This document shows, one piece after another, positions 8,350 through 43,921 of a stretch of DNA of 53,550 nt. Positions within the stretch are counted from its first letter, which is position 1; the number at the start of each line of letters is the position of its first letter. The notes beneath the pieces were generated by a model. The model searched no databases. It was given only the letters and a program-made list of their open reading frames with translations, and had not been told where the DNA came from. Both the position numbers and the translations under genes were made by a program. Source of the stretch: a virus; the IMG/VR virus record IMGVR_UViG_3300035542_000019, one strand, 5' to 3'.

Positions 8350-8892
8350 ATGAAAGGAAAGACCGATAAGACGGTAGACCTTCTAAAACTGATACGAGGA
8401 CCAGGCGGGCAGCAGGGCTTTAAAATCGTTAAGGTAGACACGACGGACCCGGACCCTATAACCCTGGTATTCGAGGGTACGCCGCTGCCCCTGGACCTGG
8501 AAATATTCGAGATTCCCGTAGACTGCTACCCGCTTAGAAAGGGCGATAGGCTGCTGGCCTATCCCCTGGTAGGTACAGAAAACGGGCAGCGCTGGGCGGC
8601 CTTTAGTAAGCTATCGGGCGGCGTAACACTGGCGACCATGACAGGGGCCACCAGCTGCCAGGTAGAGGGTATAGGGCGCGAGTACACGGCCCAGGACCTA
8701 ATCGTACCGCCCTACTTCCTGGTAGGCGACGCTGCCACCAGGTACGCGGATAACGACGGCGGGGCCACGGTCTACAGCGATTATTACCTTACAGCTTCGG
8801 ACGCTAGGCCTTTACAGGCTGGGGATACGGTTAGCCTGGTCCCTACGCTGGAAGATGGAACGATAAAATATGTTATCTTAGAACGCTATTAA
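8350..8892 (+). CDS. Baseplate spike/plug candidate (XkdR position)
   Basis: 180 aa with SD gaaaggggg. Assigned by position only. Confidence 0.4.
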   Translation: MKGKTDKTVDLLKLIRGPGGQQGFKIVKVDTTDPDPITLVFEGTPLPLDLEIFEIPVDCYPLRKGDRLLAYPLVGTENGQRWAAFSKLSGGVTLATMTGATSCQVEGIGREYTAQDLIVPPYFLVGDAATRYADNDGGATVYSDYYLTASDARPLQAGDTVSLVPTLEDGTIKYVILERY

Positions 8893-8905
8893 AGGGGGTA
8901 CGTAA

Positions 8906-9322
8906 ATGGCTGATAAGAGAAAGAGCCCCTTATTCGACTGGGAAAACGGGGAATTTATGACCGCCCAGGGTCGGGTACTTACCGGTACCGAGGAACAGGC
9001 GGTACAGCAGATAATCATAAAGGCCCAGCAGACAGCGCGGGGCCTTTACTTGATTTATGCGGACACCGAAAACCCGGCACTTAATCACAAGTACGGCAGC
9101 GACGTACACGATATCCTAGTACGACGCGACCTTACCGAGGAAGTGCGGATAAGTGAACTTAAAAGGGCTATCCAGGAAGCTATCATATACGACCCCTGGA
9201 TAGACGAGGTATACGACATTACCATAGAGCGCCAGGGCAGCACCGAGGTACTGGCAAGCTTCAAGGTAAAGACGGTATACGACAAAGAAATAGAGGTAGA
9301 GGGGGTAACGTTAAATGGCTAG
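8906..9322 (+). CDS. Baseplate wedge protein, gp25/gpW-like (XkdS position)
   Basis: 138 aa with SD taaaggggg. Size and order relative to the baseplate-J gene. Confidence 0.5.
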   Translation: MADKRKSPLFDWENGEFMTAQGRVLTGTEEQAVQQIIIKAQQTARGLYLIYADTENPALNHKYGSDVHDILVRRDLTEEVRISELKRAIQEAIIYDPWIDEVYDITIERQGSTEVLASFKVKTVYDKEIEVEGVTLNG

Positions 9323-10990: not shown

Positions 10991-12805
10991 ATGCCAAAGA
11001 CGACGCCATATTTAGGGCTTCCGATGAAGGACCCGACGACGGACGGTAACGACTACTTCGACGTAGAAGGACAGATAAACGACCCGCTGGAAATGCTGGA
11101 CCAATACGCCGAAGCTACCGACCAGGACTTAACAGCTAAGGGTCAAACTTTAGCGGGCCACGAAACCCGAATAGGGGAAGCGGAAGCCGATATAGTAAAC
11201 CACGAAGGCCGCGTAACGCGCTTAGAAAACAGCTTCGCCGCTGACCTAGAAGCGTACTACGGGAATACGAAGCTTATAGACGACTTCCAGGACTTAACCA
11301 GCTGGAACGGTACCGTAGTAGGGGAAAAGACCGCAGATACGTCTAACGTAAAGATAGGTAAGCAAAGTATAAAACTGGTAGAACATGACGGCAGCGCTAA
11401 CTCTAATTACATGGTAAAAAATAATATAACCCTAGACCTTACTAAGCTTAACAACGGCGAAGTAAGTACGGGCGACGATTACGTACTTATGGTTATGTAT
11501 GTAAGCGACGTAAACGCTATAAACTTCGCAGGGTCCGCGGTAGAATTTAGCTTCGGGGCCGACGACACATTTAGCCAAAATAACCGCGCGCTTTTCAGAT
11601 TTGAACAGGGCGACCTAGTAACTGGCTGGAACTTCATAAAGCGTAAGAAAAGTAGCGCTATCCTTCTAAATACGGGTAACTGGGCTAGTATTAAGTCTTT
11701 ACAGTTATTATGGGCCAGTAACGGCGGCTACCAGGGCGCTTATATATCAATGCAATTAGTACAGCTAGTAAAAAAGGACCCGCTGGAAGCTAAGCCTAAC
11801 CCCTTCCAAAAGAACGGGGTAAGGGACTTCGAAATATCTTCCACTATAGCCGAATGGTACGTAGGTAAGGAATTCGGGGAAATTATATGTAGAGAACTTC
11901 GAAACGCCACTATATACCCTACGGCTTTACTGGGTACTAAAACATACAAAGACAACTTTAAAGCTTATTTTAAAGCTAAAGTAATGCGGGCAGCAGGGGG
12001 CAGAACCAATTATCATGGGGTATACAAAGACAATCAAAACTTTTTAATAACGTCTATATACGACAGTAAACTTAGGTTAGGAGGGGAATTAAACGACGTC
12101 ATTTTTACCATTGAAGGGCCTACGTTGTCGGTACCAGTAGGTACGATTGTAGAATTCTACCTGGAACTGGTAGAGGGGCTACCTAACGTAACCGCCTACT
12201 TAAATGGGGACTACGCGAACCCTGTACAGCTTGTCGCTAAGGACAAAGACTATAGCGGTATAGACTTAAAATTAAACGTAAATATCTTAAGTAGTGATAC
12301 CAGTAATGTTATGGCGGCGTCCATAACCGAAATAGGCCACGCCCACCACGCCGCTATAGCTGACGTAGCTAAAAGCCTGGTAGAGCAGCCAGCAGCTAGG
12401 GTATACAATAACGTAGACCAATCCGTAGCTAGTGGCGTAGACACAGCCTTAGTATTTAACAGTATATCAGTAGATAACAGGGCGCACTTTGACCCCGAAA
12501 ACCCCTCTTACCTTACGGTTAGGGAAGCGGGTATATATCTTATAAGCGCTAGTGTAGGCGCAACTAACCCGAATGTAACGGGCTTTAGAAGCGCCTTTAT
12601 AACCGTAGGGGCGTTAGCTTTAGGTATAGACAGGAAATTACCCACAGAAGCAGGACAGAATAATTACTTTGTATTTTCCACAGTAGCTAAGCTAAAGGTA
12701 GGGGATAAAATCTACTTAAAATTTAGCCACACAGCGGGCGTTAGTATAACTATACCGAGGTATGGAAGTTTTTCACCCGAACTAAGCATAGCTAAAATAG
12801 GCTAG
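10991..12805 (+). CDS. Tail fibre / receptor-binding protein with C-terminal C1q/TNF-like head
   Basis: 604 aa after the baseplate genes. The last ~138 aa (ALVFNSISVDNRAHFDP...GIYLISASV...KLKVGDKIYLKF...) follow the C1q jelly-roll pattern. Confidence 0.7.
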   Translation: MPKTTPYLGLPMKDPTTDGNDYFDVEGQINDPLEMLDQYAEATDQDLTAKGQTLAGHETRIGEAEADIVNHEGRVTRLENSFAADLEAYYGNTKLIDDFQDLTSWNGTVVGEKTADTSNVKIGKQSIKLVEHDGSANSNYMVKNNITLDLTKLNNGEVSTGDDYVLMVMYVSDVNAINFAGSAVEFSFGADDTFSQNNRALFRFEQGDLVTGWNFIKRKKSSAILLNTGNWASIKSLQLLWASNGGYQGAYISMQLVQLVKKDPLEAKPNPFQKNGVRDFEISSTIAEWYVGKEFGEIICRELRNATIYPTALLGTKTYKDNFKAYFKAKVMRAAGGRTNYHGVYKDNQNFLITSIYDSKLRLGGELNDVIFTIEGPTLSVPVGTIVEFYLELVEGLPNVTAYLNGDYANPVQLVAKDKDYSGIDLKLNVNILSSDTSNVMAASITEIGHAHHAAIADVAKSLVEQPAARVYNNVDQSVASGVDTALVFNSISVDNRAHFDPENPSYLTVREAGIYLISASVGATNPNVTGFRSAFITVGALALGIDRKLPTEAGQNNYFVFSTVAKLKVGDKIYLKFSHTAGVSITIPRYGSFSPELSIAKIG

Positions 12806-16111: not shown

Positions 16112-16119
16112 CGACAAGA

Positions 16120-16152
16120 CCCCCGGCTATGAAAAGCTGGGGGTTATTTTTT
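16120..16152 (+). terminator. Rho-independent terminator ending the lysis cassette
   Basis: cccccggct / agctggggg stem (one G-U) with a 6-nt loop, followed by ttatttttt. Confidence 0.75.
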
Positions 16153-16201: not shown

Positions 16202-16576
16202 ATGTTAAGTGTAACGGTAGAACTGGTAGCAGGCTTCGGGAAGATAAGGGGCAAGGAAATAACCTTCTACAAGGGCAAGCAGCCCGGCGGCGTTCTTTTC
16301 CATATCCCGCTAAGGTATAAGAAGGAACACCAGGTAACAGGCGTCACGTGGGACGAGAGGACAGAAAGAAGCGCAGGCAAGGCAGCAGCCGGGGCTATAG
16401 TAGGCGGGGCGCTTACCGGCGGCCTGGGCCTGGTAGCCGGTACAGCTGTAGGCGGAAGAAAGCGCGACAAGTCTACAGCGGTTATAAGTTTCCTGGACGA
16501 AAAGGGCGAGGAAAGGCAGCTTATGGTACGCTGCGACGCGAAGAAATTCGAAGGCCTTACCAGGTACATAACCTAA
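16202..16576 (+). CDS. Hypothetical glycine-zipper membrane protein (moron-like, between two terminators)
   Basis: 124 aa with SD gaaagggg. Central GAIVGGALTGGLGLVAGTAVGG segment flanked by charged soluble halves. Confidence 0.6.
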   Translation: MLSVTVELVAGFGKIRGKEITFYKGKQPGGVLFHIPLRYKKEHQVTGVTWDERTERSAGKAAAGAIVGGALTGGLGLVAGTAVGGRKRDKSTAVISFLDEKGEERQLMVRCDAKKFEGLTRYIT

Positions 16577-16610
16577 AACCTTCCAGCCTTAAAACATTAA
16601 AAAATAAGAC

Positions 16611-16632
16611 TATATAGTATATATACTATATA
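16611..16632. repeat. Perfect 22-bp palindrome tatatagtatatatactatata
   Basis: The sequence equals its own reverse complement. Lies at the start of the A/T-only core. Confidence 0.9.
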
Positions 16633-16755
16633 TTATAAATACTACTAACTATATATATTATGTATATTATATTTATAGTATTTATTATTATATATAGTAT
16701 ATTATTTAGTAGTTAAAGAAATTAAAAATAATATATAGTGCTTTTGATTCTTTAT

Positions 16756-16830
16756 GGGGGTACTTTTCTTCTGATTTACTGCTGTAGTAAGTCTTTAGAA
16801 AATTACCCCCCTCTAATTTTTTTGATTTTA
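16756..16830 (+). terminator. Long hairpin plus T-tract inside element A (putative strong terminator)
   Basis: GGGGGTACTTTTCT (16756-16769) pairs with AGAAAATTACCCCC (16797-16810) in 13 of 14 positions, followed by ctctaatttttttgatttt. Confidence 0.55.
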
Positions 16831-16882
16831 TATATTTTTTCTACCGCTGGGATACTGTAAAGAAATACATAATAAAAAAGTC

Positions 16883-16911
16883 TTTACTTCTTTACTTAAT
16901 AGCCTTATAAT
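16883..16911 (+). promoter_or_regulatory. SigA-type promoter candidate for the early orphan gene cluster
   Basis: TTTACT (16883-16888), 17-nt spacer, TATAAT (16906-16911), 44 nt upstream of the ATG at 16955. Confidence 0.5.
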
Positions 16912-16954
16912 AAGGGAAACGGCACCCCACAAATTTACGAAAGGCGGTAAGACC

Positions 16955-17890
16955 ATGGAAAAGAGTATCAAGGAAATGATTAAGGAATCGAAAGAGCGCG
17001 ACGCAAAACGAGTAAAGCAGCTGCACGAAAAGATTAAAGCGGAATTCCCAGGGCTGGAAATCGAGAACCTAAAGACGGGCGGCAGCCTGTACGGCGAGTA
17101 CATCGTATACCTAAACGAGCGCGAATGTATTAAAGTGGATAGCTTCATGGTTTACGAAAGCACAACGGACCTAGGCTTTAACATCGAGTACGCCGAGGAA
17201 CGCGGCGAGCAGTACGAGGTAGTCGAAACGAAGAACTATATATACGTGATAGAAAGCTGCTTCGACTGGCAAGTATGGATTAGAAAATTTTTCAAAGGCA
17301 CAGGCAAGCGCGTAAAAGGCACGCAGATAAGCCGCAAGGTTTACACGACAGGTAAGGGCAGCTATATTAACATGGAAGGTAAACGCCACTACGTAAGCTT
17401 CTTAAACACCGACGACGTGGCCGAGAGTGAGCCGGCCCCCGAGCGTAAGCGGGAAAAACTATATCGCGGCGACGAAGGCTTTTACCAGGCTGTAGAAGCA
17501 GCAAAGGCGGGGAAGAAACTTTATACCAAGGGCTGGCCCGCTTGCGAGTATACCGAAGTCGCCTACTATTCGGACGGCTATAAGTACATCGTTACCAATA
17601 ACGACGACCTGGGTGTATTTAGTACGGTGGAGAAGATACCGGCGGATATCGTAAAGGCCATGGTATCCCAGGATAGCACTGTGCTAGAAGGTGAGTTTTT
17701 CGGTCACGTGGAAAGCGTGATAGGGCCGGACGGTATTACCCGGTACGATATCGACGCCTTTATCGTCTACCAGGACAATAACCTAACCATAAGGACAGGC
17801 GGCGAAGTGGTAACGGCCTGCGAAATCGAGGACGGCATGGTAACCGTATGGGAAACCTTAGACTACGAAGAAGAAAAGGGGGCGCTTTAA
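16955..17890 (+). CDS. Hypothetical early protein (311 aa)
   Basis: First ORF after element A and the promoter candidate. No motif recognised. Confidence 0.65.
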   Translation: MEKSIKEMIKESKERDAKRVKQLHEKIKAEFPGLEIENLKTGGSLYGEYIVYLNERECIKVDSFMVYESTTDLGFNIEYAEERGEQYEVVETKNYIYVIESCFDWQVWIRKFFKGTGKRVKGTQISRKVYTTGKGSYINMEGKRHYVSFLNTDDVAESEPAPERKREKLYRGDEGFYQAVEAAKAGKKLYTKGWPACEYTEVAYYSDGYKYIVTNNDDLGVFSTVEKIPADIVKAMVSQDSTVLEGEFFGHVESVIGPDGITRYDIDAFIVYQDNNLTIRTGGEVVTACEIEDGMVTVWETLDYEEEKGAL

Positions 17891-18274
17891 GTGGATAGGA
17901 ACAAGGCGAAGGAATTTATTAGACGGTACAGCGCATGGTTCGAAGAAACGGTAGACGAACTGGAACGCGTCTATACCCTGGACAGCGACCAGGCCTACGA
18001 AGAAGCGATTAAGATTATGAAAAAGAACCACCTGTACGGGAATAAATTCAAGACCAGCGAGGAAATGGACCTACTGGCCCTTTGGTTCGCACAGCTGGCG
18101 CAGAAAACGACCTGGCGGGTAACGACGACCTTTTACAACAGCGGCCGGGTAACCGCAGCCTTTTACAGAGCAGGCGACGAACCCGGGGACTTCGGAAACT
18201 GCGACGTATACGTGGATAGCTTCAAGACAAAGCTAGAAGCGCTTTACTTCATCGACGACGCGAAGAACGCGTAA
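17891..18274 (+). CDS. Hypothetical early protein (127 aa, GTG start)
   Basis: GTG immediately after the previous TAA, with SD aaaaggggg upstream. Confidence 0.6.
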   Translation: MDRNKAKEFIRRYSAWFEETVDELERVYTLDSDQAYEEAIKIMKKNHLYGNKFKTSEEMDLLALWFAQLAQKTTWRVTTTFYNSGRVTAAFYRAGDEPGDFGNCDVYVDSFKTKLEALYFIDDAKNA

Positions 18275-18286
18275 GGGGGCTATACT

Positions 18287-18538
18287 ATGAACTTCAAGGA
18301 ATACCTGGAAACCTGTACGACGCCAAGCTTTAACGACCACCTACAGGCAGAGGGTAGGCCGACCCAAAAGGCTTACCTAGAGAAGTCGGTAAAAGAGCGC
18401 ATGGTAAAATACGCCAAGGCTAAGGGGCTGCACAGGCTGGAAGGCGACTTAAAGGCCATGGCTGCACTTACCAGCTTTATATACTTTAACGTCATATGCC
18501 GGGGCGAGGACCTGGCCGAAGAAAGGAAGGGGGCTTAA
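18287..18538 (+). CDS. Hypothetical early protein (83 aa)
   Basis: SD taaggggg 7 nt upstream. Confidence 0.6.
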   Translation: MNFKEYLETCTTPSFNDHLQAEGRPTQKAYLEKSVKERMVKYAKAKGLHRLEGDLKAMAALTSFIYFNVICRGEDLAEERKGA

Positions 18539-19984: not shown

Positions 19985-20011
19985 ACCCTTTTAGGTATAA
20001 AAAGGCGAATT

Positions 20012-20069
20012 TAAGAATATACTAATAAGTTATTGACGTATGGAAAATAAAGCACTATAATAGAAAATA
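20012..20069 (+). promoter_or_regulatory. Consensus SigA promoter, copy 1 of a duplicated promoter cassette
   Basis: TTGACG (20033-20038), 17-nt spacer, TATAAT (20056-20061). The flanks taagaatatactaataagttattgac and tataatagaaaata are identical to the cassette at 29158-29215. Confidence 0.8.
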
Positions 20070-20245: not shown

Positions 20246-21682
20246 ATGGCGAAAATAGCTTACGTAAAAGCCTGGGGTTTATGGTCCCACTTCGAAACGG
20301 TTTTCGAGTTTAGCCCAGGCCTAACCGTGGTAACGGGGCCAAACGGCAGCGGTAAAAGTACGCTGATACGTATTATAAAATGGGTAGCCCAAGGCGAACC
20401 CAGCGGGGAAAGTTTTATTTTTAAAGTGGAAAACGACGCCGGCGAAACGGTGAAGCAGGCGGACGAGGGTAAGGCGGAAATCGGCCTGGATAACGGGGTA
20501 GTCATTACCAAGACCAGGCGGAAAGGAAAAACCACCTATACCATTAACACGGTGGCCGAACCCTTCGAGAAGGCCGAGGTACCCCAGGAAGTAAAGGAAG
20601 CCCTGGGTATTGATAAGTACAGCTTCGGGGACTTCGAAAGCTACCTTAACTACGCCTTCCAGCTGGAAGCGCCCTTCCTGCTAAGCGAAAGCCCAAGCGT
20701 AGGGGCTAAGGTACTGGGTAAGCTTGCCGGTACCGAAGCGGTGGACCTGGCTATTAGAGAAGTAGCGAAAAGGACCCACAAGACCAGGGAAGAAAAGCGA
20801 CTAGCAGACAAAGAGGTAGAACGTATTAACGGCGACCTTTTGGACTACCAGGACCTGGACGACCTTAAGCAGCAGCTTACAGCCTGCGAGTACCTGGTAG
20901 AGCAGCTGGACCAGGCGGTAGCGAGAAAAACAGACCTGGCCGCCATGGATAACACTTTTAGGCTGGCCGTGGACAAGTACGGCGAACTGGCCGAGCAGCT
21001 ACAGCACTATATGGTACTGGGCGAACTGGAAGCGGATATGGAAAACGTGGAAACCGCCCAGCGTCGCTACGATATGCTGCTGGACCTTTACGGGCAAGTA
21101 GACAGCGCGGTAAATACCATCGCGGACCTGGGGCAGCAGCTTAGCGAGTACCGGGAAGTCGAAAGCGCCGGCCTGCTTCTTACCGAAACAGAAAAGCGGG
21201 CAGCAAGACTTACGAACCTAAAGGACTTATCCACAGAGTTATCAACATATACACAGCGCATTGACGCGGCGCGCGGATACCTGGACACGGTAAAGGACCT
21301 AGACGTAGCCGCTTCGAATATGCAGTACGTCGAGAAAACAACGGAAAAGCTGGAAGCCCTAAAGACACTTCGCGGGGCCTACACTACAGCCGATACCGAA
21401 AGAAAACGCCTTACCGAGAACCTGGAAGCCTTAAAGGGTACCCAGGAAGCCGCGGAACTCTTTAGCGTGGTAGACGACAAGCTGGTAAGGCTGAACAGCC
21501 TAAAGGCCCTTAGCGACGAGGTACAAAGTAAAACGGGCCTGGCGGAAAGCTACAAGGACGACGTAAGGAAGGCCGGGGAAGCATACCTGGCAGCCGAAAA
21601 CGAACTGGCCGCAGCGTGGGAAGCAGCCGGCGGGACCTGCCCGTTATGTAATCAACCGGTAAGCGGCGACCACGCGCATTAG
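20246..21682 (+). CDS. Rad50/SbcC-type ATPase, N-terminal piece (Walker A head, coiled coil, terminal CxxC hook)
   Basis: FSPGLTVVTGPNGSGKST Walker A, then ~350 aa of heptad-rich sequence. Ends GGTCPLCNQPVSGDHAH with the CxxC at 21638-21649. Confidence 0.75.
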   Translation: MAKIAYVKAWGLWSHFETVFEFSPGLTVVTGPNGSGKSTLIRIIKWVAQGEPSGESFIFKVENDAGETVKQADEGKAEIGLDNGVVITKTRRKGKTTYTINTVAEPFEKAEVPQEVKEALGIDKYSFGDFESYLNYAFQLEAPFLLSESPSVGAKVLGKLAGTEAVDLAIREVAKRTHKTREEKRLADKEVERINGDLLDYQDLDDLKQQLTACEYLVEQLDQAVARKTDLAAMDNTFRLAVDKYGELAEQLQHYMVLGELEADMENVETAQRRYDMLLDLYGQVDSAVNTIADLGQQLSEYREVESAGLLLTETEKRAARLTNLKDLSTELSTYTQRIDAARGYLDTVKDLDVAASNMQYVEKTTEKLEALKTLRGAYTTADTERKRLTENLEALKGTQEAAELFSVVDDKLVRLNSLKALSDEVQSKTGLAESYKDDVRKAGEAYLAAENELAAAWEAAGGTCPLCNQPVSGDHAH

Positions 21683-21698: not shown

Positions 21699-22373
21699 AT
21701 GAATAACACGTACGGAACGCTAGAAGATGGTAGGGTACAGATTTTACTAACCAGGAAGAACGGGAACCCACAGGAAGCCGTCGTAATTGACGCCGAGGAC
21801 CTGCCTAGACTGCTGGCCTTTAAAGGCCACTTCTACCCGTTTACCCACCAAAAGACGGGCAAGGTATACGCCAGGGGGTACTACAAGGACCCCGAAACCG
21901 GAAAGGTGCAGCAGCCATTACTACATAGGCTAATCGCGGACCCTTCCAAGGGACAGAACACGGCGCACGTAAACGGTAATACCCTGGACTGTACCCGCGA
22001 GAACCTGCGGAACTTGTCCATAGGTAAGAATATCGAGGACGTGTTAAGGGAAGAAAAGACCTTCACGGACGGCCTTAAAGAGGTTAAGCGCAGCGGGGAT
22101 ATCGCAGCAGAAAAGGAACTGGAAGAACTGGCGACGGTGGACCCGGATACGCTTAACGATAAGCTGGACAAGCTTAAGGACCAGGGCCGGGTAGAAAAGG
22201 GCGTAAGCTTCCACAAGCTAAAGCGGCGCTGGGAAGTAAGCGCCTTCCATAAGGGCAAGCGGCACCGGCTGGGGTACTGGCCGCCGGAAGAACTTAGAAA
22301 GGCAAACGAAGCGGTACTATTCTTTAGGCGAGAGGGTCCCAGGGCCTTTAACGCCGCTTATGAAAGGGGGTAA
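21699..22373 (+). CDS. HNH-AP2 homing-endonuclease-like protein
   Basis: LHRLIADPSKGQNTAHVNGNTLDCTRENLRNL is HNH_3-like. GVSFHKLKRRWEVSAFHKGKRHRLGYWPPEELRKANEA is an AP2 DNA-binding motif. Confidence 0.7.
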   Translation: MNNTYGTLEDGRVQILLTRKNGNPQEAVVIDAEDLPRLLAFKGHFYPFTHQKTGKVYARGYYKDPETGKVQQPLLHRLIADPSKGQNTAHVNGNTLDCTRENLRNLSIGKNIEDVLREEKTFTDGLKEVKRSGDIAAEKELEELATVDPDTLNDKLDKLKDQGRVEKGVSFHKLKRRWEVSAFHKGKRHRLGYWPPEELRKANEAVLFFRREGPRAFNAAYERG

Positions 22374-22377
22374 GTAA

Positions 22378-22650
22378 ATGGACGACAAGACCTTAAAGGA
22401 ACTTAGGGAAAAGGTAGACGCTGCCGAAACGCTGAAAAAGAAAATGGAAATGCTGGACGACGTGGTAGCCAGCTGTAACGCCGAGGTAGGTTTTTTAAGC
22501 GTGACGGTAAACTACAGGAATCAGAACGAAATCAGAATGGTAGACACGTTCCCGGCTAAAGAGTTATTCGAAGCATTTAAAGACGACCTTAAGGCCGCGG
22601 CACTAAAGCATAAGGAACAGCTGGAAAAACAGTACACGAATCTAAAATAG
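22378..22650 (+). CDS. Hypothetical protein (90 aa)
   Basis: SD gaaaggggg upstream, partly coiled coil. Confidence 0.6.
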   Translation: MDDKTLKELREKVDAAETLKKKMEMLDDVVASCNAEVGFLSVTVNYRNQNEIRMVDTFPAKELFEAFKDDLKAAALKHKEQLEKQYTNLK

Positions 22651-28368: not shown

Positions 28369-29160
28369 GTGAAGGTACTGTACTGTAACAAGGAACTGAT
28401 TAAGTACCATATGGCCGAAGCACTGGTAATGGCCGGCCTTCCTATGAGTACGACGACCGAATACCTGGACACGGATATACGGGCCGTGGAAGCCCTTCTT
28501 ATGGGCTGTAGGGAAGAAGCCCTGGCGAATATCTTTACGAAGGACGAAGCCGAGGAAGAAGCCTTTACCAAGCGGCTACACGCCCATATGAGAAGGGGCC
28601 ATACACTAGGCCAGGCAGCGCCTAGCAGCGGACACGATAGCTTTTTAAAGGGTATCGTCGTCACAGCTATTATATCGGCGCCAGCTTACCAGTGGCCGCA
28701 GATACAGCGCTACCACTTCCTGGACATTGTAAGCAGCCAGTCGAAAATGCACAGACTTACGAAAATGGATATTAGAAGCCAGTGTAACGAGGAAGTAAGC
28801 GACCTGCTTATAGATATGCTTAATGCCATGATTGACGACTATAACCAGGTACAGGGGCAGGTAGAAGCGATTAACCAGTGGCGGGTAGACAGCCCGGAAG
28901 CTGCCAGGGAGAAGCAGGACGCCCTAAAGGCAGCGAACGCAAAGGCCCATAAAATCTTTAGGGCTATCCTAAACAATACGCCGCACGGCCTTAGGCTTGC
29001 AGCGGGTATTACGACGAACTACCTACAGCTTAAGACCATGAAGCAGCAGCGCAGGGGTCACAGGCTGGAAGAATGGTACCACGACTTCGTAGACTGGGTA
29101 GACGACCTACCGTACTTTTTAGAATTCACGGAAAAAACAGGTATAAAAAAGAGCCGGTAA
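28369..29160 (+). CDS. Divergent ThyX-like (flavin-dependent thymidylate synthase fold) protein with degenerate signature
   Basis: SGHDSFLKGIVVTAIISAPAYQWPQIQRYHFLDIVSSQSKMH aligns with the ThyX core (GH.S..EH..FTF.I.APIF..RQ..RHR..S....S.RY), but RHR..S....S.R is replaced by RYH..D....Q.K. GTG start with SD gaaaggggg. Confidence 0.55.
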   Translation: MKVLYCNKELIKYHMAEALVMAGLPMSTTTEYLDTDIRAVEALLMGCREEALANIFTKDEAEEEAFTKRLHAHMRRGHTLGQAAPSSGHDSFLKGIVVTAIISAPAYQWPQIQRYHFLDIVSSQSKMHRLTKMDIRSQCNEEVSDLLIDMLNAMIDDYNQVQGQVEAINQWRVDSPEAAREKQDALKAANAKAHKIFRAILNNTPHGLRLAAGITTNYLQLKTMKQQRRGHRLEEWYHDFVDWVDDLPYFLEFTEKTGIKKSR

Positions 29161-29215
29161 GAATATACTAATAAGTTATTGACTTGTAGGATAACGACCC
29201 TTATAATAGAAAATA
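29158..29215 (+). promoter_or_regulatory. Consensus SigA promoter, copy 2 of the duplicated promoter cassette
   Basis: TTGACT (29179-29184), 17-nt spacer, TATAAT (29202-29207). Flanks identical to 20012-20069. Confidence 0.8.
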
Positions 29216-33505: not shown

Positions 33506-35029
33506 GTGAAACTTAGCAGCATGTTTCCAAATAGCAGGACGCTAGCCAATAAGACAGCACCGGCCCCCGTAAAGGAACGGCCGAAAGCTGAAAAGCTGGC
33601 GGACCTATTACCGAAGAACAAAAGAAAGCCAGGTACTTTTAACATTACCTGGCCCAAGTTTAGAACGCAGCAGCCAAAGGACTACAGGGTTATAACCACA
33701 GTAGACCAGCTGGAAGCGTATATAGATAAATGCGAAGCTACCGGACTGGGCGGCTTCGACTATGAAACAGCGGGCGACGAGAACCACAGGACCGAAAAGG
33801 ACATAGAGGAAAGGGTAGCGCTTGACCCGCATAAGTCAGAAATATGCGCTATGAGCCTATCGGCAGCAGCCGACGAAGCCCGGGCCATATTCATAAGCCA
33901 CAAAACGGGCGGTAACCAATTCGAGCCGGGGCTAGAGAGAAACGAAGCCAGGAAAGTTTTAATGGACACGCTGGAAAGACGCTTCTTTACTAACCCTAAG
34001 ATTATGAAAATCGCCGTTAACCTGGCCTTCGAAACGAAATTTACAGCCAAGTACGGTAAGTATATCCTTATGCCGGTGGCTGACCCGTTCACGGCCTGGA
34101 TACGTATTTTACAGCTGGTGGCGCCCCAAAAGATTAAAAGCCCGAAGCGGCCGTACACTGGAAAGGGCCTTAAGCCCATGACGTACGAATACTTCGGGGT
34201 ACGTATGGGTAACTTCGAAGAAGTGCTTAAGAAGTACGACGCGGACTTTTTCGACGAGATACCATCGGACAGCCAGGACGCCCTGGTATACTGCTGCGAG
34301 GACAGCGACTACGCCGTACAGCACTGGTTATACTGGGACGAGATAGCCCAGCAGATAGAGAACGAGAACGACGAGTACCCGACGTACAGCGACTGGCTTA
34401 AGGGTATAGAAATGCCCTTCGCCCGCGTTATCGGCCTTATGGAATACCACGGCATGTACTGGGACCAGCACCTAAGCGAGGTTAAGCGCCAGGAAGCCGA
34501 GATTATGCAGCAACAGGCCGCCGAGGATATCCAGCGTATCGCAAAGGAAACCCTGGGCCTTGACGTGAACCCGGGTAAGTCGGGAAAGACCAACGAGGTA
34601 AAAAGCGTCATATTCGACAGCATGAAAATACCGGCGTCGTCCTGGTCCGATAAGACCGGCGACCCGAGCCTGGACGCTAACGCGCTTATGGATATGATTT
34701 TTATGTTAGAGAACAAACTAAACAGCCTGGACGAAGAAAAGTACCTAGCGACGCCGCTACCCGAGGGCTGGGAAGATATCGACGTAGAAAACGACACCAC
34801 GCTAGACCGCTACACGCGCCAGCGTATACGTATAGCGCAGCGGCCGCCGCACAAGTACCGCGACCAGGGTATCGAACTGCTTAACCTGCTGCAAAAGATA
34901 CAAAAGTACAGCACGCTTTTAAGTAGCCATATCGTAGGCCGTGAGAAGTACCTACACGAGGTTACGAACCGGATACACGCCCAGTATACGCCGTGGACGG
35001 AAACCAGCAGGCTAAACAGCAGCCGCCCT
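33506..35029 (+). CDS. Family A DNA polymerase, exon 1 (3-5 exonuclease domain and N-terminal part of the polymerase domain)
   Basis: GTG start with SD gaaagggg. GGFDYETAGD and CCEDSDYAV are exo motifs. The conserved motif is broken after ...TSRLNSSRP. The track ORF reads on into the intron to 35077. Confidence 0.85.
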
Positions 35030-35743
35030 AAAAAGTTGGGGCCTACAGGGGCGACCCTGTACGGAAAAACCGCGTGAACCCAGGGGAAGCTAAGGGCCTA
35101 TGGCCTACGCCAATCCTGGACCAAGCCAGCAGAACGCTATAAAAGTAAGCTGGAAGGCGCAACGACTAACGGCCGAGGAAGCGAACCGATAAGGCCGACA
35201 CGAGCGCGCGGGTACTATAAAAACCTGTAATAACAAAACGTGCCGTTTTATGATATACTAACCCTAAGAAAGGGGAGATACCATGAAATGGAATGAAGAA
35301 AAAGAGCGGTTCCTAAAAGAGAACTACCTAGAGAAAGGCGCTAAATATTGCGCGGAGAAGCTGGGGGCTACAAATGCGGCCATACGACACAAAGCAAGCA
35401 GGCTAGGCCTTAAGCGGAAAGGTAAAGGCAGACCGGATAGAGTTGTAGAAGTTGGCGGCTATAAAGCCATATCACGTTATAACGACAGAAAGCGGATACA
35501 CAGGTTAGTAATGGAGAAACACCTGGGGCGCGAACTGGAAGCTAACGAGATAGTACACCATAAGAACGGCAACAAACACGATAACCGGCTGGAAAACCTA
35601 GAGGTAGTAACCAGGGGTGAACATATGCGCAAGCACCCAAAGGAACGCGACGAAAAGGGTAGGTTTATATAGTACATGATATAGTCTAACCTTACGGGAA
35701 ACCGTAAGAACTACAGGATAAAGAGCCTGTAGGTTAATACATG
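35030..35743 (+). mobile_element. Group I self-splicing intron carrying an HNH endonuclease ORF
   Basis: Exon 1 ends in U (gccct) that can pair as G-U with ggggc at 35038-35042 (P1). The intron ends in G (...aatacatg). Has GAAA-tetraloop and other hairpins. Splicing restores SSRP-NGQNVPR. Confidence 0.75.
35283..35672 (+). CDS. Intron-encoded HNH homing endonuclease
   Basis: Own SD aaagggga. [47 protein letters not shown] is an HNH motif. The N-terminal segment is HTH-like. Confidence 0.8.
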
Positions 35744-36661
35744 AACGGCCAAAACGTCCCACGTACCGATAACGACGAATTCGGTATACGGAACTTCTAC
35801 AGGGCGCCCGACGGGAAGGTGCTTTACCTTATCGACTATAGCGGCTTCGAACTTCGGCTAATGGCCTGGAAGTCCGGCGACGAGGTAATGACAGACGCCT
35901 TTAAGCACGGGGGCGACCTGCACAGGAAAACAGCGGCGACGCTTACGGGTAAGCCGGAAAGCGAAATCACGAAGCACGAAAGAAGTAATGCAAAATCTGG
36001 AAACTTTGGTATTTCTTATGGCGGCACGGAATACGCCCTACAGGGAACCCTTAAGGGCTACGGTATTCGTATGAGCCTGGACGAGTGCCTGGAAATCGTA
36101 AAGGCGGTAAAAGCGACCTATCCAAGGATACCCGAGTACCAGCGCAGTATCGTAGTAGAAGCCAGGGAACAGGGCTACGTAGAAACCATCTACGGCTATA
36201 AAAGACTGCTGCCTAACATCAATTCGACAAGCGGCAAGGCTAGAAGCAGCGACGAGCGTAGGGCGTCAAATACGCCTATACAGGGGTCGGCAGCAGACGT
36301 TATGAAACGTAGCCAGCTGGTCGTATACGAGAAAATAGGCCTTGATACAGCCAGGGAAAGGCTGGGACAAGACCTTAAGGTATTCGAAGGCTTTAGCGAA
36401 GAAATCAAAACAAAGCTGGAAGAACCGCCGGTATTCATGCACGGTAAAACCGATATGCTGGCTAATATTCACGACGAAATTATATTCGAATTCGTAGACG
36501 ACGTGGAAGTAATCAAGCGTGCCGGCGCATGGGTAAAAGAGGTTATGGAAATACCACCGGTACCAGGCTTCCCTATTGATATCGAAGCTGACGCCAGCGT
36601 AGCCTACAGCTGGGGTAATAAAAAGGACCTGGACGAATGGCTTAAAGAAAGGAAGGGGTAA
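35744..36661 (+). CDS. Family A DNA polymerase, exon 2 (palm/fingers motifs A, B, C)
   Basis: NGQNVPR; DYSGFELRLMAW (motif A); RSNAKSGNFGISYGG (motif B); NIHDEIIFE (motif C). The ATG at 35741 in the track is the last three intron bases. Confidence 0.85.
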   Translation, partial: NGQNVPRTDNDEFGIRNFYRAPDGKVLYLIDYSGFELRLMAWKSGDEVMTDAFKHGGDLHRKTAATLTGKPESEITKHERSNAKSGNFGISYGGTEYALQGTLKGYGIRMSLDECLEIVKAVKATYPRIPEYQRSIVVEAREQGYVETIYGYKRLLPNINSTSGKARSSDERRASNTPIQGSAADVMKRSQLVVYEKIGLDTARERLGQDLKVFEGFSEEIKTKLEEPPVFMHGKTDMLANIHDEIIFEFVDDVEVIKRAGAWVKEVMEIPPVPGFPIDIEADASVAYSWGNKKDLDEWLKERKG

Positions 36662-37665: not shown

Positions 37666-37952
37666 TGAAGAAAAAACGCGTAGAGCCGCTAGGCCGAAGC
37701 ATGAAGGAACTAGACGACCTTTTTACAGACGGCGGCGGTATATTCGACACGGCGGCCCGGGTGGCCTTCAAGGAAAAGAGTAAGCCGGCGCCGAAAATCA
37801 AGGTACCGGGGGTTAAAGGCCCCCAGGTACTTACTGATAAGGAACTGGCCCGCATAAAGAAGCTGGAAGCACTGGCAGCGGACCCCGGGGCTTCGGAAGG
37901 CGAGAAGGCGACGGCCAGGGAGAAGATACGCCGCATTAAAGGGGGTAAGTAG
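37662..37952 (+). CDS. Hypothetical basic protein (96 aa)
   Basis: ATGA overlap. ELARIKKLEALAADPGASEGEKATAREKIRRI is helical. Confidence 0.55.
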   Translation: MMKKKRVEPLGRSMKELDDLFTDGGGIFDTAARVAFKEKSKPAPKIKVPGVKGPQVLTDKELARIKKLEALAADPGASEGEKATAREKIRRIKGGK

Positions 37953-38444
37953 ATGGCTACGAAAGTGGTAATCATCAACGGGTACCCCCAGGCGGGTAAG
38001 GACACCTTTATAGGATACTGCGAGCAGTACGTAACCGTGCTAAACGTGTCCACGGTAGACAGGGTAAAGCAGGCCCTTAAGCTGCTGGGCTGGGAAGGAG
38101 AGAAAACGCCGGAAATCAGAAAGGCCCTATCAGACCTTAAGGACCTATCTACGGCGCTTTTCGACGGACCGGTGACCTATATAAAGGACCAGGTAAAAGC
38201 GCACCCTACCAAGTGCTTACCGGGCCTTATCTTTATCCACTCACGGGAACCGGCCGAAATCTACAGGCTTAAGCAGGAACTGGACGCGACGACGCTTTTA
38301 ATAAGCCGGAAGCCGAAAGAGGAAATCACGAACCACGCCGACCGAAACGTAGAGAAATTCCCTTACGACCACGTGATAGACAATAACGAAGGGCTGGAAG
38401 AACTACACGAGAAGGCGCGGAAATTCATAGGAAGGATATTTTAA
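37953..38444 (+). CDS. P-loop kinase, dNMP-kinase-like
   Basis: VVIINGYPQAGKDTF is a P-loop of the G....GKD(T) type seen in phage dNMP kinases. 163 aa. Confidence 0.5.
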   Translation: MATKVVIINGYPQAGKDTFIGYCEQYVTVLNVSTVDRVKQALKLLGWEGEKTPEIRKALSDLKDLSTALFDGPVTYIKDQVKAHPTKCLPGLIFIHSREPAEIYRLKQELDATTLLISRKPKEEITNHADRNVEKFPYDHVIDNNEGLEELHEKARKFIGRIF

Positions 38445-41294: not shown

Positions 41295-41581
41295 CGAACT
41301 TAAAAGAGCAAAGGGACCGATTTATCACACTACAGGAAAAAGCGGCCTTCGGGGGCCTTAACGCCATCGAGGAAGGCGAGGTAGCAGCACTGGAAAGGTA
41401 CCTGGAAAACCCGGCGACCGAGAACCAGGTAGAGTACATCGAAGCCCTGCTGGAACGCCTGGGGGCCGACCTTAGCGAATACACGGACACCGACCAGGAC
41501 CTACTGACCTACGAGGAAGCCAGCGACCTTATCGACGACCTAAAGGACGACGCTTACCTTACGGACGCCTGGGACAATTAA
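41291..41581 (+). CDS. Small strongly acidic protein (96 aa)
   Basis: ATGA overlap. The C-terminus EYTDTDQDLLTYEEASDLIDDLKDDAYLTDAWDN is very acidic. Confidence 0.6.
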   Translation: MTNLKEQRDRFITLQEKAAFGGLNAIEEGEVAALERYLENPATENQVEYIEALLERLGADLSEYTDTDQDLLTYEEASDLIDDLKDDAYLTDAWDN

Positions 41582-41596
41582 GAAGGGGGCGACGAC

Positions 41597-41785
41597 GTGG
41601 CACGGAAACGGACACTAAAGGAATACGGGTACGAGTTTTTACTACTACGCGACAAGATGGTTAAGGACTACCCGGACGTGGACTTTAGCGAGGTAAACCC
41701 GCTAATCGAGGAAATAGACGACGCCCTGGGCTGGCTGGAATACGAACGACGCGGCGGGAACTGGACGAAAGAGGGGGTAGAGTAA
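41597..41785 (+). CDS. Small hypothetical protein (62 aa, GTG start)
   Basis: SD agaaggggg 7 nt upstream of the GTG. Confidence 0.5.
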   Translation: MARKRTLKEYGYEFLLLRDKMVKDYPDVDFSEVNPLIEEIDDALGWLEYERRGGNWTKEGVE

Positions 41786-42102
41786 TGGGTAAGCACTTTG
41801 TAAAATACACGCTAAGCACGAACCTAGAAGCCGAAGGACTGGAAGGTACGCCGGAATTTAAGGCACTGGAAAAGAAGCTAAAGGAAGGCGGCAGCATATG
41901 GAACGAGCGCTACGGCCTTCGCACGCTGGGAAGTATTGAAAGACGCGGCACCGAGTACGTGGCCTTCCAGGGGGTTATCGTCGGTAGCACGGTAACCGAG
42001 TGTAAGGGAATCCTACAGGGGTTTAAGGTGGAAATCAGAAACGCCCTTCCAGGTGTCAAGCGCATAAGCGACGACTTCGTGGCCTTTGGTAGGAATATGT
42101 AA
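41785..42102 (+). CDS. Hypothetical protein (105 aa)
   Basis: TAATG overlap with SD agaggggg. Confidence 0.6.
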   Translation: MGKHFVKYTLSTNLEAEGLEGTPEFKALEKKLKEGGSIWNERYGLRTLGSIERRGTEYVAFQGVIVGSTVTECKGILQGFKVEIRNALPGVKRISDDFVAFGRNM

Positions 42103-42114
42103 GGGGGTAGGCGA

Positions 42115-42384
42115 ATGGACTTTAGAGGGAACCCGGGGAAGGTGGACCGCTGCGTATGCTGCGGCGAGCCGGTACCCGAGGGCCGGCAGGTATGTAAGGG
42201 CTGCGAGAAGAAAACAGCAGGGCCGCAAGACGGGGGCGTAAAGCCCCGAAGAACTGGGAAGCGGATAAAAGGCGCTTCTACGACAAGTAAGGGGGTAAGG
42301 ATATGGCAGCACCTAAAAAGCCCCTGGTCGTTACCCTGGAAGGGGTGGCGCCAAGGGCAAGCAAGGAAGAACTGGAAGAACTGA
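42115..42384 (+). CDS. Zinc-ribbon protein; 3-prime end doubtful (possible frameshift near 42205-42240)
   Basis: SD taaggggg. CVCCGEPVPEGRQVCKGCEKK looks real. The Trp/Arg-rich tail overlaps the next gene by 82 nt and looks out of frame. Confidence 0.45.
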   Translation: MDFRGNPGKVDRCVCCGEPVPEGRQVCKGCEKKTAGPQDGGVKPRRTGKRIKGASTTSKGVRIWQHLKSPWSLPWKGWRQGQARKNWKN

Positions 42385-42590
42385 TAAGGCGAGAGGAAAG
42401 CCGGTACTTTACAACAGCAAGGGGCGAGGACCTGGACAGACTGGCAGCACTGGCCGCCTTTTGGCGCAGACAGGGAGAGGACGACGACGCCTTTAGGGCG
42501 CGGATACTAAAAGGGCTGGGAATGGTACACGGTAAAGGGAACCCAGCAGAAAGGGGCTTACATCATGCACGAGAGAAGAACGAAGGTTAA
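42303..42590 (+). CDS. Hypothetical protein (95 aa)
   Basis: Strong SD taagggggtaaggat before the ATG. Confidence 0.6.
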   Translation: MAAPKKPLVVTLEGVAPRASKEELEELIRREESRYFTTARGEDLDRLAALAAFWRRQGEDDDAFRARILKGLGMVHGKGNPAERGLHHAREKNEG

Positions 42591-43074: not shown

Positions 43075-43130
43075 AAAATAAGGCTGGAAAGGCCCGGAAC
43101 GAAAAGGCTACAGCCTAGTAATTCCAAAGC

Positions 43131-43405
43131 TTCCAGCGCGTAAAAGAAAAAGACTTATTATATACTATATATACTATATATTATATAACTAATACTACTA
43201 TATATTATATATATATTATTATATATAGTATTTATTATTATATATATGTATATATAGTATTGTTTTTTAGTTAGAGAGTTAGAGAAAATAAAAAATATAT
43301 AAGGTATTCGAATCTTTAGGGGGGTAGTTTTTTTATTTTCGTTTTTAGAATTCGTTTTTATAAAAATTACCCCCCTCTAAATTTTTTCGTTTTATATATT
43401 TTTTC
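43131..43405. repeat. AT-rich boundary element, copy B (homologous to 16581-16841)
   Basis: Same ordered blocks as copy A. Ends directly at the SD of the gene starting at 43422. Confidence 0.85.
43316..43394 (+). terminator. Long hairpin plus T-tract inside element B (putative strong terminator)
   Basis: ttaggggggtagttttttt (43316-43334) pairs with ataaaaattacccccctctaa (43360-43380) with one bulge, followed by attttttcgtttt. Confidence 0.55.
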
Positions 43406-43421
43406 AGAAAGGGGTTTTTCT

Positions 43422-43805
43422 ATGGCTGTAAGAATCGAAGGACTGGTAAGCAAGAAGGTAATAAGGGCATGGCTGGACGACTGGGACAGCCTACAGGGTG
43501 ACGGGCCGCCGAAGTACCAGGCCTGCTTTAACAGCGGCAGCAAGCCGTACGATGGGGTCAGTAATAAGCAGCTGAATAAAATAATGCTGGAAGCTGCCCT
43601 TAACGACCTGCCGCCGGTGCTTTACGTATGCGCGAAGTACCGATGGGTCGAGCAGCTGCCACTAAGCGAAACGCTGGAACGTACGGGAATCGCAAAGAGT
43701 ACATATTACAGACGCTGCGATAAGGCCGTGGAATTCATTTACTACCACGTGAACGGGATAGCTGCGGGTATCAAGGACTTACTAGAGAAAATAAGGGAAG
43801 TTTAA
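43422..43805 (+). CDS. Late transcription regulator candidate (sigma-70 region-4-like HTH; RinA/ArpU-type position)
   Basis: 127 aa. LPLSETLERTGIAKSTYYRRCDKAVEFI is a region-4-like HTH. Sits immediately upstream of the terminase genes. Confidence 0.5.
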   Translation: MAVRIEGLVSKKVIRAWLDDWDSLQGDGPPKYQACFNSGSKPYDGVSNKQLNKIMLEAALNDLPPVLYVCAKYRWVEQLPLSETLERTGIAKSTYYRRCDKAVEFIYYHVNGIAAGIKDLLEKIREV

Positions 43806-43815
43806 GGCGTATAGT

Positions 43816-43855
43816 GGAAACTTCCTTCTTATTCCTTGTCAAGGGTGGGAAACTT
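43816..43855 (+). promoter_or_regulatory. Pair of GGAAACTT direct repeats 32 nt apart (candidate activator or TerS binding sites)
   Basis: gtGGAAACTTcc at 43816-43823 and gtgGGAAACTTtgg at 43848-43855. TTGTCA and a TG-n-TACTCT element lie between and after them. Confidence 0.35.
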
Positions 43856-43878
43856 TGGTACTCTATATGTAGTATGGC

Positions 43879-43900
43879 GGTAGTACGTAAACGTACTACC
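43879..43900. repeat. Perfect 22-bp palindrome GGTAGTACGTAAACGTACTACC
   Basis: 10-bp arms are exact reverse complements around a central AA. Confidence 0.9.
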
Positions 43901-43921
43901 TATAGTTAGTTAAATATTGCC

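Follow-up and report, generated by a model that had tools for sequence, protein, structure and literature searches.

In the present study, two intergenic elements were analysed in a 53,550-nucleotide stretch of viral DNA (IMG/VR virus record IMGVR_UViG_3300035542_000019; hereafter the window, meaning the whole stretch). Element A (16580-16841) and element B (43130-43405) are homologous, about 270 bp long and about 90% A/T. Our results revealed that the element is a real, sharply defined cis-element which is conserved as a pair. On its sequence we regard it as a new form of origin or module-boundary cis-element; the initial annotation knew of no described element of this type, the literature that we searched on the relatives does not describe it, and blastn of the element against phages and plasmids gave no matches. 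Our favoured reading, held tentatively and with less than even confidence, is that the pair may be replication-origin-type sites for the phage's own machinery, which would at the same time delimit the late and the early transcription unit.

The reality of the element was supported by several lines of evidence. The initial annotation had described A and B as homologous with shared ordered blocks, and the alignment bore this out: it ran over the full length with all blocks in the shared order, and one 43-nt stretch was 93% identical. The border words begin one base to the left of where the elements had been placed, at 16580 (A) and 43130 (B). The composite motif TACCCCCC-N14-20-TATATATTTT had three matches in comparison with 0.00 expected. 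The genome GC content of about 0.52 drops to 0.27-0.28 at elements A and B only, in agreement with the A/T-rich cores in a G/C-richer genome that had been noticed before. The least stable 100 bp by duplex free energy lay in the B core (-83.9 kcal/mol, z = 7.4) and the A core (-87 kcal/mol, z = 7.0), compared with a genome mean of -142.8 +/- 8.0 kcal/mol per 100 bp and a next-lowest stretch at z = 3.7. Chance is excluded because of the composite motif, the instability of the cores and the recurrence of the two-copy layout in relatives (see below).

The window is a circular assembly of a tailed phage, with bases 1-113 repeated at 53438-53550, giving a 53,437-bp unit. As had been stated before, all genes run on one strand: the plus strand carries every long open reading frame (ORF). 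The late module holds the genes for terminase, portal, head, tail and lysis; the early one encodes SbcC/SbcD-like proteins, a superfamily 2 helicase, an MCM-primase fusion (1,048 aa, archaeo-eukaryotic primase fused to MCM helicase) and a family A polymerase. A and B fill the two largest intergenic gaps (16577-16954, 378 bp, and 43075-43421, 347 bp). The gene map agreed with the junctions proposed earlier, from lysis to early genes at A and from early genes to the late regulator at B. A is located between the lysis cassette (endolysin, holin-like gene and small membrane-type gene) and a sigmaA-like promoter with the first early gene behind it. B comes after the last early gene and directly adjoins a small regulator gene upstream of the terminase genes. 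The centres of A and B are 26.56 kb apart, or 49.7% of the 53,437-bp circle, which matches the earlier figure of about 26.6 kb on 53.4 kb. However, although the distance of half a genome holds, it is a by-product of equal module sizes; in the relative phBC6A51 the second copy lies upstream of a recombinase gene and not at the lysis/early junction. The parts of both elements and the adjoining features are as follows.

16580..16587, plus strand: left border word of A, CTTCCAGC, 4 nt past the stop codon of gene 16202-16576
16611..16632, unstranded: head palindrome of A, TATATAGTATATATACTATATA, perfect over 22 bp, with AGTA/TACT arms
16611..16737, unstranded: TpA-rich core of A, 91% A+T, one of the genome's two least stable 100-bp stretches
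16729..16762, minus strand: left arm of A, TACCCCC, 18-nt spacer, TATATAT; 23 nt from the first C to TATAT; strict-motif match at 16761 on the minus strand
16763..16803, unstranded: central spacer of A, A/T-rich, hairpin of TTTTCT/AGAAAA and TTTACTGC/GTAGTAAG; self-fold z = -4.5; 97.6% identical in the close relative c031
16804..16841, plus strand: right arm of A, TACCCCCC, 17-nt spacer, TTATATATTTTTT
16883..16911, plus strand: early promoter, sigmaA-like, TTTACT, 17 nt, TATAAT; 42 nt past A and before the first early gene at 16955
43130..43137, plus strand: left border word of B, CTTCCAGC; a second word, CTACAGC, at 43108-43114
43156..43301, unstranded: TpA-rich core of B, 90% A+T, a large imperfect palindrome (inverted repeat I2); holds the genome's least stable 100 bp; core fold z = -2.2
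43292..43326, minus strand: left arm of B, TACCCCCC, 17-nt spacer, TTATATATTTT; exact pattern match, 100% conserved in c031
43327..43367, unstranded: central spacer of B, T-rich and weakly self-complementary, z = +0.3; 82.5% identity in c031
43368..43405, plus strand: right arm of B, TACCCCCC, 17-nt spacer, TTATATATTTTTT; ends 16 nt before the regulator ATG
43422..43805, plus strand: late-regulator gene, 127 aa, phrog_23784, with a conserved helix-turn-helix-like C-terminus and a weak match to sigma70-ECF region 4 (E = 0.0026)

The G-run and C-run blocks listed in the initial annotation are present, but they belong to a larger mirrored dyad which it had missed. The unit of the dyad is a bipartite box, TAC6, with exactly 23 nt from the first C to TATATAT, and two such boxes are mirrored around an A/T-rich spacer. 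The whole layout reads AATATATA(A/G)GGTAT, about 9 nt, a T-run and G6TA, an A/T-rich spacer of 40-57 nt, TAC6, 17 nt and TTATATATT(TTT). Of 21 right arms, 20 had the 23-nt distance from the first C to TATAT, as did 13 of the 18 left arms. C-runs became shorter or longer among copies, and these changes were offset by spacer length; TTATATATT was invariant over 19 aligned copies. A box variant, TAACCCT, was present in lineage c273. In three complete genomes, the strict box occurred in the elements only, four per genome. The segments between the box halves showed no complementarity between arms (mean z = +0.39). Because these segments do not pair, the mirror symmetry does not serve for hairpin lengthening. 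In fact, one long 115-nt hairpin was considered and rejected: the outer A/T blocks looked like a helix, but the inter-block segments were non-complementary and RNAalifold gave only the invariant G/C helix. The central spacers were self-complementary overall (mean z = -1.64, p = 5e-4), with strong hairpins in the copies ending the late operon (z -2.7 to -5.5) and often none in the regulator-adjacent copies. After shuffle correction, the fold of the whole dyad was equal on both strands (-3.75 vs -3.92).

The box has the geometry of a -35/-10 pair, that is hexamer, 17 bp and hexamer, and the C-run starts at -35 if TATATA is taken as -12 to -7. The left arm was directed toward the core in 13 of 18 copies. 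Compared with a sigmaA promoter, it has an invariant -10-like TATATA(T) at a spacing of 17 bp, but CCCCCC stands at the -35 position, so the box is not a sigmaA promoter. A scan for sigma70-like sites found none in B.

To the left of the dyad, the element consists of a border word and an A/T-rich core. The border word T[AC]CAG[CGT], usually CTTCCAGC or CTACAGC, lay 11-48 nt before the core in 16 of 21 copies, over a genome background of 3 per kb; an inverted word at the right border was weakly enriched (6/21 copies). The perfect 22-bp palindrome reported at 16611-16632 was confirmed by direct reading and by folding, and in most lineages the core opens with a comparable palindrome of 20-34 bp with TACT/AGTA arms. 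Over the 21 copies, the cores were 90-150 bp long and 85-93% A+T. Their composition was strongly biased in the same set: TACTA/TAGTA words were observed 66 times against 9.1 expected (z = 18 for TACTA), mostly within the head palindrome, ATATA and TpA steps each reached z of about 23, and AACTA reached z = 3.6. A-tracts were depleted (34 observed against 172 expected, z = -8), and control words with a central G or C were not enriched. The dyad symmetry of the cores was modest (mean z = -1.2).

The initial annotation had left conservation to a search of related genomes, and there the pair proved to be widely kept. The closest deposited relatives are the Bacillus phages vB_BboS-125, phBC6A51 and PHBA67-T, with about 70% aa identity in MCM-primase, and each of them has two copies of the element. 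Pattern and profile searches of viral, metagenome and metagenome-assembled genome (MAG) contigs found the pair in at least 15 lineages, among which the identity of the adjacent regulator was as low as 35%. At every examined locus, the element was the sole stretch of at least 85% A+T over 80 nt. One copy always stands beside the regulator gene, so that a homologue of the late regulator is found beside one copy in every lineage. The other copy stands after the lysis genes, mostly after a homologue of gene 16202-16576. In the temperate phages phBC6A51 and PHBA67-T, the second copy is upstream of the recombinase gene and is followed by a canonical terminator and a promoter. The pair was retained with the replication and regulator block where the packaging/structural module had been replaced. 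For example, phBC6A51 is without a homologue of the window terS, terL or portal, yet both elements are kept. The replication module and the regulator always co-occurred in deposited phages and metagenomic contigs, and the element was absent from Youna2, which is a distant relative in the helicase only.

The orientation of the copies differed between the two positions. The non-regulator copies were co-oriented with the genes in 11 of 11 cases, and the regulator-adjacent copies of 13 lineages were forward in about nine and inverted in four. Since the regulator tree groups the four inverted lineages in a single clade, one old inversion that was stably kept accounts for them, and repeated inversions were rejected because one event suffices. 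As the dyad is symmetric, the inversion in effect only shifts the core to the other side of the dyad. The inverted copies have no T-run after the hairpin on the coding strand. In PHBA67-T, a DNA-invertase (hin) gene (L068 17011-17571) is located between the terminase genes and the late regulator, near the inverted copy; the 86-feature record of vB_BboS-125 has no annotated invertase.

Copies within a genome shared lineage-specific features, such as an extra G-run in both copies of c122 and ATTTAT repeats in both copies of vB_BboS-125, and the identity of copies within a genome was somewhat above that between genomes. Between the window and a near-identical relative with flanking genes 93-96% identical, the arms of B were 100% conserved and its spacer about 82%; the spacer and right arm of A were about 97% conserved, and the changes in the A core were mainly indels. 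Furthermore, in phages that are otherwise 93-99% identical (the window vs L042 and L059, contig IMGVR_UViG_3300035548_000031), the early genes beside both elements were replaced, at 16955-18500 after A and 41500-43074 before B, where the alignable identity was 54% and 39%, respectively. Owing to these exchanged early genes, the elements adjoin mosaic junctions and hypervariable slots for genes. The A/T core of an element is also where two near-genome-length contigs end, L053 (IMGVR_UViG_3300009194_000002, 52.8 kb) and L040 (ERZ808275 NODE-94, 55.1 kb); the lysis-side copy is concerned in one of them and the regulator-side copy in the other. The simplest explanation is an assembly break at a repeated A/T-rich sequence, with physical genome ends as a less likely alternative.

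The strictly spaced mirrored boxes, together with a core rich in TACTA and TpA and poor in A-tracts, point to recognition at the DNA level that a plain terminator would not need. Recognition as double-stranded DNA by a symmetric assembly, beside a stretch suited to bending or melting, is suggested by boxes that are strictly spaced and do not pair, two sites per genome, a strand-neutral dyad and a core instability based on TpA steps. We ranked the origin-type reading first because of these recognition features, the precedents of phages SPP1 and T4 (see below), the -35/-10 geometry of the boxes, the left arm that faces the core, and the UvsW-like, Mre11/Rad50-like and resolvase-like functions which the phage encodes. 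The homologue of its helicase is annotated as UvsW helicase in the record of vB_BboS-125.

As origin-type sites, the elements would serve the MCM-primase, the family A polymerase, the SbcCD-like nuclease and the UvsW-like helicase. A symmetric protein complex, either an initiator or a helicase-loading complex, would recognise the two mirrored boxes; given the -35/-10 geometry, RNA polymerase with a factor at the C-run would be equally possible at this step. The neighbouring TpA-rich core would then melt, and the A/T-rich spacer between the boxes may melt too. The core-facing arm would be laid out as in T4 oriF/oriG, with a promoter (factor box and sigma70-type -10) followed by an A+T-rich unwinding element. 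The two copies of like organisation would parallel oriL and oriR of SPP1, the second one possibly stalling forks and triggering the switch to concatemer synthesis. Finally, the hairpin-prone dyad with its T-run, or a protein bound to it, could stop incoming transcription, and the copy would thus double as a module boundary.

However, a number of observations weigh against this proposal. Many phage origins lie in or beside the initiator gene, and the elements are 10-13 kb away from the MCM-primase gene. Searches with Pfam, NCBIfam and PDB sequences found no initiator or origin-binding protein among the proteins scanned, which covered the products of most early genes and of the genes next to both elements and to MCM-primase. 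Direct iterons were not general, being significant upstream of B only in vB_BboS-125 and L017. There were no DnaA boxes near the elements, and cumulative GC skew rose monotonically and gave no usable origin signal. Furthermore, the co-orientation of all 11 non-regulator copies with transcription, the T-run that follows the C-run in most forward copies and the strongest hairpins in the copy that ends the late operon all fit a terminator better, while the presence of one copy per transcription boundary is directly predicted by a boundary function.

These last points lead to the strongest alternative, a purely transcriptional boundary, which we consider possible but rather unlikely. Here the dyad hairpin and T-run would serve as the stop of the late operon in A and of the early operons in B, and the right arm would restart the next unit through a sigma70-like TATATA -10 and a C-run -35 box read by some factor; A would have to be a strong stop, late transcription being apparently antiterminated. 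Besides the copies mentioned above, about nine of the 13 regulator-adjacent lineages are co-oriented with transcription, the strongest spacer hairpins (z -4 to -5.5) occur where a copy ends the late operon, and both copies of c122 have a tight GGGGGG-ACTA-CCCCCC hairpin with a T-rich tail. From the promoter at 29179 to the regulator gene there is no other terminator, and the regulator gene has no preceding sigmaA-like promoter. The box geometry is also exactly that of a promoter, but CCCCCC is not a sigmaA -35 element, and the box stands at no other gene; a general promoter class was therefore rejected, the box being confined to the elements.

The arrangement 3' of the regulator gene also bears on this alternative. 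In every lineage, the gene is followed by a promoter of sigmaA-like type, by a short palindrome specific to the lineage and by a strong GC hairpin ending in a T-run, and then come the terminase genes (seen in the window at 43806-43990 and in L001, L003, L017, L021, L030, L034, L038, L061, L062 and L063). The window has GGTAGTACGTAAACGTACTACC as the palindrome and GGGCCAGG...CCGGCCC-TTTTTT as the hairpin. Read from the sequence, this implies the layout of antitermination-controlled late operons (lambda PR'/tR'-like). Under that layout, the 61-aa ORF at 43917-44102 is probably not a gene, and a robust stop would be needed before transcription re-enters the early genes. The element was also considered as the target of the late regulator and rejected, since the late promoter and the palindrome downstream of the regulator share no motif with it.

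On the other hand, much of the anatomy exceeds what a terminator needs, namely the 100-150 bp TpA-rich core, the head palindrome, the border word and mirrored boxes with strict spacing. Moreover, there is no pairing between the segments that separate the box halves. The coding-strand RNA of the inverted clade is without a U-tract after the hairpin, and the vB_BboS-125 fold had z = -0.36. Canonical small terminators already adjoin the element in vB_BboS-125 and phBC6A51, and in the window one lies one gene upstream of A. The element was not called by a simple terminator scan, as its loop exceeds 8 nt. The insulator (terminator plus restart) proposed in the initial annotation is compatible with the gene-map position and the anatomy, but is opposed by the inverted clade, by the canonical terminators nearby and by DNA-level features beyond a terminator. 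The replication origin, which had been proposed beside it together with a platform for factor binding, is likewise compatible with the anatomy and not separable from the insulator by sequence. In fact, the two readings are not mutually exclusive.

A different possibility is that a protein with an architectural or silencing role nucleates at the elements. It would read the minor groove of flexible A/T DNA, might be a Rok-like host protein or some phage protein, and would act as a roadblock or repress the early promoter and the late-regulator gene. The cores match the published preference of Rok, with TACTA and AACTA at the top, then ATATA/TpA, and A-tracts disfavoured (PMC6212790), and both copies abut regulatory nodes, i.e. 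the early or integrase promoter and the late regulator. However, the B. cereus group is without Rok (PMC6212790), yet phBC6A51 and PHBA67-T carry the elements. Further copies were found on contigs binned into Clostridia MAGs, suggesting hosts other than Bacillus. Rok is not known outside some Bacillus species. TACTA is not avoided outside the elements (observed/expected 1.40 in the window and 2.54 in vB_BboS-125), and most TACTA words come from the single head palindrome. No Rok-like or architectural protein was found by Pfam in the scanned phage proteins, and the G/C boxes would be left unexplained. Silencing by host Rok was thus rejected, and we regard the broader idea as improbable.

A function at the RNA level seems to us more improbable still. 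It might be RNase III processing, an mRNA-stabilising hairpin between modules, or a small RNA gene with a core promoter, a hairpin and a U-tail. Indeed, the dyad folds well (z -3.7 to -5.7), and lineage-variable stem extensions stay complementary (GGGGGGTATC/GATACCCCCC, TACT/AGTA and TACC/GGTA), the stem of c273_A reaching about 25 bp; the hairpin forms in either orientation, so that inversion would be tolerated. A strand-specific structure was nevertheless rejected, because raw energy favours the forward strand but the shuffle-corrected z is equal on both, leaving no strand preference after composition control. The spacer is non-self-complementary in many copies and the middle segments are never complementary, and in B the spacer drifts while the arms are fixed. 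RNAalifold recovered only the invariant 8-bp G/C helix, and the core is left unexplained. A search of Rfam gave no match at the gathering score, and a permissive search gave only sub-threshold microRNA-type hairpin noise (E = 0.16-0.2).

Least probable of all is a role in recombination or packaging, or an origin as selfish DNA (pac/cos, attP, an invertible element or a mobile one like a miniature inverted-repeat transposable element (MITE), or SbcCD-cleaved palindromes that start recombination-dependent replication). The palindrome-rich elements, the SbcCD-like proteins encoded, the hypervariable early genes and mosaic junctions at both copies, the one inversion in evolution, and the CTTCCAG and CTGGAAG words that flank the inverted vB_BboS-125 copy speak for it; pac/cos was rejected on two copies per genome and on a non-homologous packaging module in phBC6A51 with the same elements, attP on a phBC6A51 copy internal to the prophage, upstream of the recombinase gene, and a window without detected integrase, and a MITE or mobile element on two syntenic copies in all cases, a right-border inverted word in only 6/21 and no target-site duplications seen on reading the flanks, which was not a systematic search. 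A centromere for a ParM-like partition protein was also rejected, the first gene after A being unrelated to vB_BboS-125 gp17. Neither an integrase (by Pfam) nor a CI-type repressor was found among the scanned window genes.

With regard to the surrounding genome, strong sigmaA-like promoters on the plus strand were located at 16883, 20033 and 29179, and canonical terminators on the same strand at 3703, 16118 and 19957. A promoter similar to that at 16883 was found 18-50 nt past the right arm in most non-regulator copies. Gene 16202-16576 (phrog_37056) is small, has a glycine-zipper-like hydrophobic stretch and lies between the canonical terminator at 16118-16145 and A; homologues with 43-52% identity are located directly upstream of the non-regulator copy in L009, L013, L044, L046 and L048. 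A second homologous intergenic pair of 77 nt, 78% identical, was found at 19993-20069 and 29139-29215. Each member has an A/T-rich upstream part and a near-consensus sigmaA promoter (TTGAC, 17 nt, TATAAT), and they head the recombination operon and the HTH_17 / MCM-primase operon, respectively. This pair is the next least stable DNA after A and B (z = 3.7).

The ribosome-binding site (RBS) before nearly every gene is an unusual G-run, AAAGGGGGTAA, and not GGAGG (e.g. 8888-8911, 22360-22383 and 37935-37958). The G6TA half of the dyad is similar to this RBS and the TAC6TCT half to its complement; no start codon follows the G-run of the elements. DnaA-box-like words (TTATCCACA, up to one mismatch) were about twice as frequent genome-wide as expected (14 vs 6.2), and 0 of 100 shuffles reached 14. 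Three of them cluster in 94 bp of a low-GC tail gene (12638-12731), and the SbcC-like gene holds a perfect and a near-perfect DnaA box 3 nt apart (21227-21247). Furthermore, 5-mers containing CAAT/ATTG or TCAA/TTGA were strongly avoided genome-wide in the window and in vB_BboS-125, with observed/expected values of 0.12 for AATTG, 0.21 for ACAAT and 0.31 for ATTGA in the window and 0.10 for ATCAA in vB_BboS-125. The family A polymerase of the window is split into an exonuclease part (33506-35077) and a polymerase part (35741-36661), with an HNH_3 endonuclease gene (35283-35672) and 205 bp of non-coding DNA between them, whereas the gene is uninterrupted in vB_BboS-125 and phBC6A51. A homing endonuclease may have inserted here, or the gene may contain an intron or be a split gene.

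A more specific form of the origin-type reading is that the elements are the loading sites of the phage-encoded archaeal/eukaryotic-type MCM-primase, where initiation, or fork arrest and a recombination-dependent switch at the second copy, would be coupled to both temporal transcription boundaries. We regard this form as doubtful, and it would matter nonetheless. BcMCM of phBC6A51 is the biochemically studied bacterial-virus version of the archaeal/eukaryotic replicative helicase, so far only in vitro, and the BcMCM literature that we searched names no origin or loading site. The elements would provide precise candidate loading sites for a phage MCM, in which the boxes are defined and their spacing is fixed, and of which an inverted variant occurs naturally. 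If they were instead transcriptional insulators, they would show how temporal modules are separated in a one-strand circular genome with apparently antiterminated late transcription, and they would represent an unusually elaborate class of terminator/promoter. Either way, they are annotation landmarks for the clade that mark the early/late borders and the hypervariable gene slots.

Among known systems, phage SPP1 has two origins of like organisation with an A/T-rich unwinding element, and transcription signals lie on both sides of the intergenic island that holds its oriR (PMC6316719). No composition bias in the SPP1 genome is stronger than that of its A/T-rich islands, and the second origin copy of SPP1 was proposed to stall forks and trigger recombination-dependent concatemer synthesis (PMC6316719). 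The elements resemble the gp38-bound oriL/oriR in having two distant copies in a Firmicutes phage and putative protein-binding repeats beside an A/T-rich unwinding element. As for the unwinding element, the cores with 85-93% A+T supply the two least stable 100-bp windows; as for the repeats, the mirrored boxes and the head palindrome are element-specific, and direct iterons are not general. However, SPP1 has direct repeats, a DnaB-type helicase, a dedicated origin binder and an oriL inside the initiator gene, whereas the elements have mirrored G/C boxes in -35/-10 geometry, an MCM-primase fusion and two intergenic copies, and there is no sequence similarity. In T4, oriF and oriG are under the control of UvsW, and in each of them a promoter (factor box and sigma70-type -10) leads into an A+T-rich unwinding element (PMC3016281). 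The likeness here lies in a compact unit (about 100 bp) whose candidate factor box is placed near -30/-35, an arrangement in which the left dyad arm faces the core, and in the UvsW-type helicase and Mre11/Rad50-type nucleases encoded by the phage. The T4 origins are different in that they are not homologous to each other and are not dyads, while the boxes of the elements are a putative promoter only; a MotA/AsiA-like factor was not found in the window phage.

The archaeal origin recognition box (ORB) has the consensus GTTCCAGTGGAAAC-AAA----GGGGG (PMC1868953, PMC4010727). The elements share with archaeal oriC the inverted G-run boxes that flank an A/T-rich stretch, a TTCCAG-type word and an MCM-type helicase, but the TTCCAG word is more than 150 bp from the G-run and the full mini-ORB dyad is absent. 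No mini-ORB (TTCCAGTGGAA) was found at the elements, the genome as a whole having 9 matches with up to two mismatches in comparison with 6.7 expected, and searches of the scanned proteins against Pfam, NCBIfam and PDB sequences gave no Orc1/Cdc6. An archaeal ORB origin was therefore rejected as an identity, and this is a resemblance and not membership. Intrinsic terminators share a G/C-clamped hairpin followed by a T-run at the 3' ends of operons, which both c122 copies show in canonical tight form; they differ from the elements, which have a spacer or loop of 40-57 nt, unpaired outer boxes, an A/T core and border word in all cases, and some inverted copies. The likeness to Rok binding regions is confined to word composition and ends at the Rok-free hosts, the lack of genome avoidance of the words and the lack of a Rok-like phage gene. 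In satellite phage P4, the initiator is a primase-helicase fusion and depends on two homologous cis sites at separate places, ori and crr, the second of which works in either orientation. These P4 sites are direct octamer iteron arrays a few kb apart and bound by the alpha protein, unlike the elements described here. Taken as MCM-primase loading sites, with mirrored G-run boxes on either side of a readily melting spacer and a large unwinding element next to it, the elements would be closer in architecture to the archaeal ORB/G-string origins and the core origins of simian virus 40 (SV40) and papillomavirus than to any bacterial origin.

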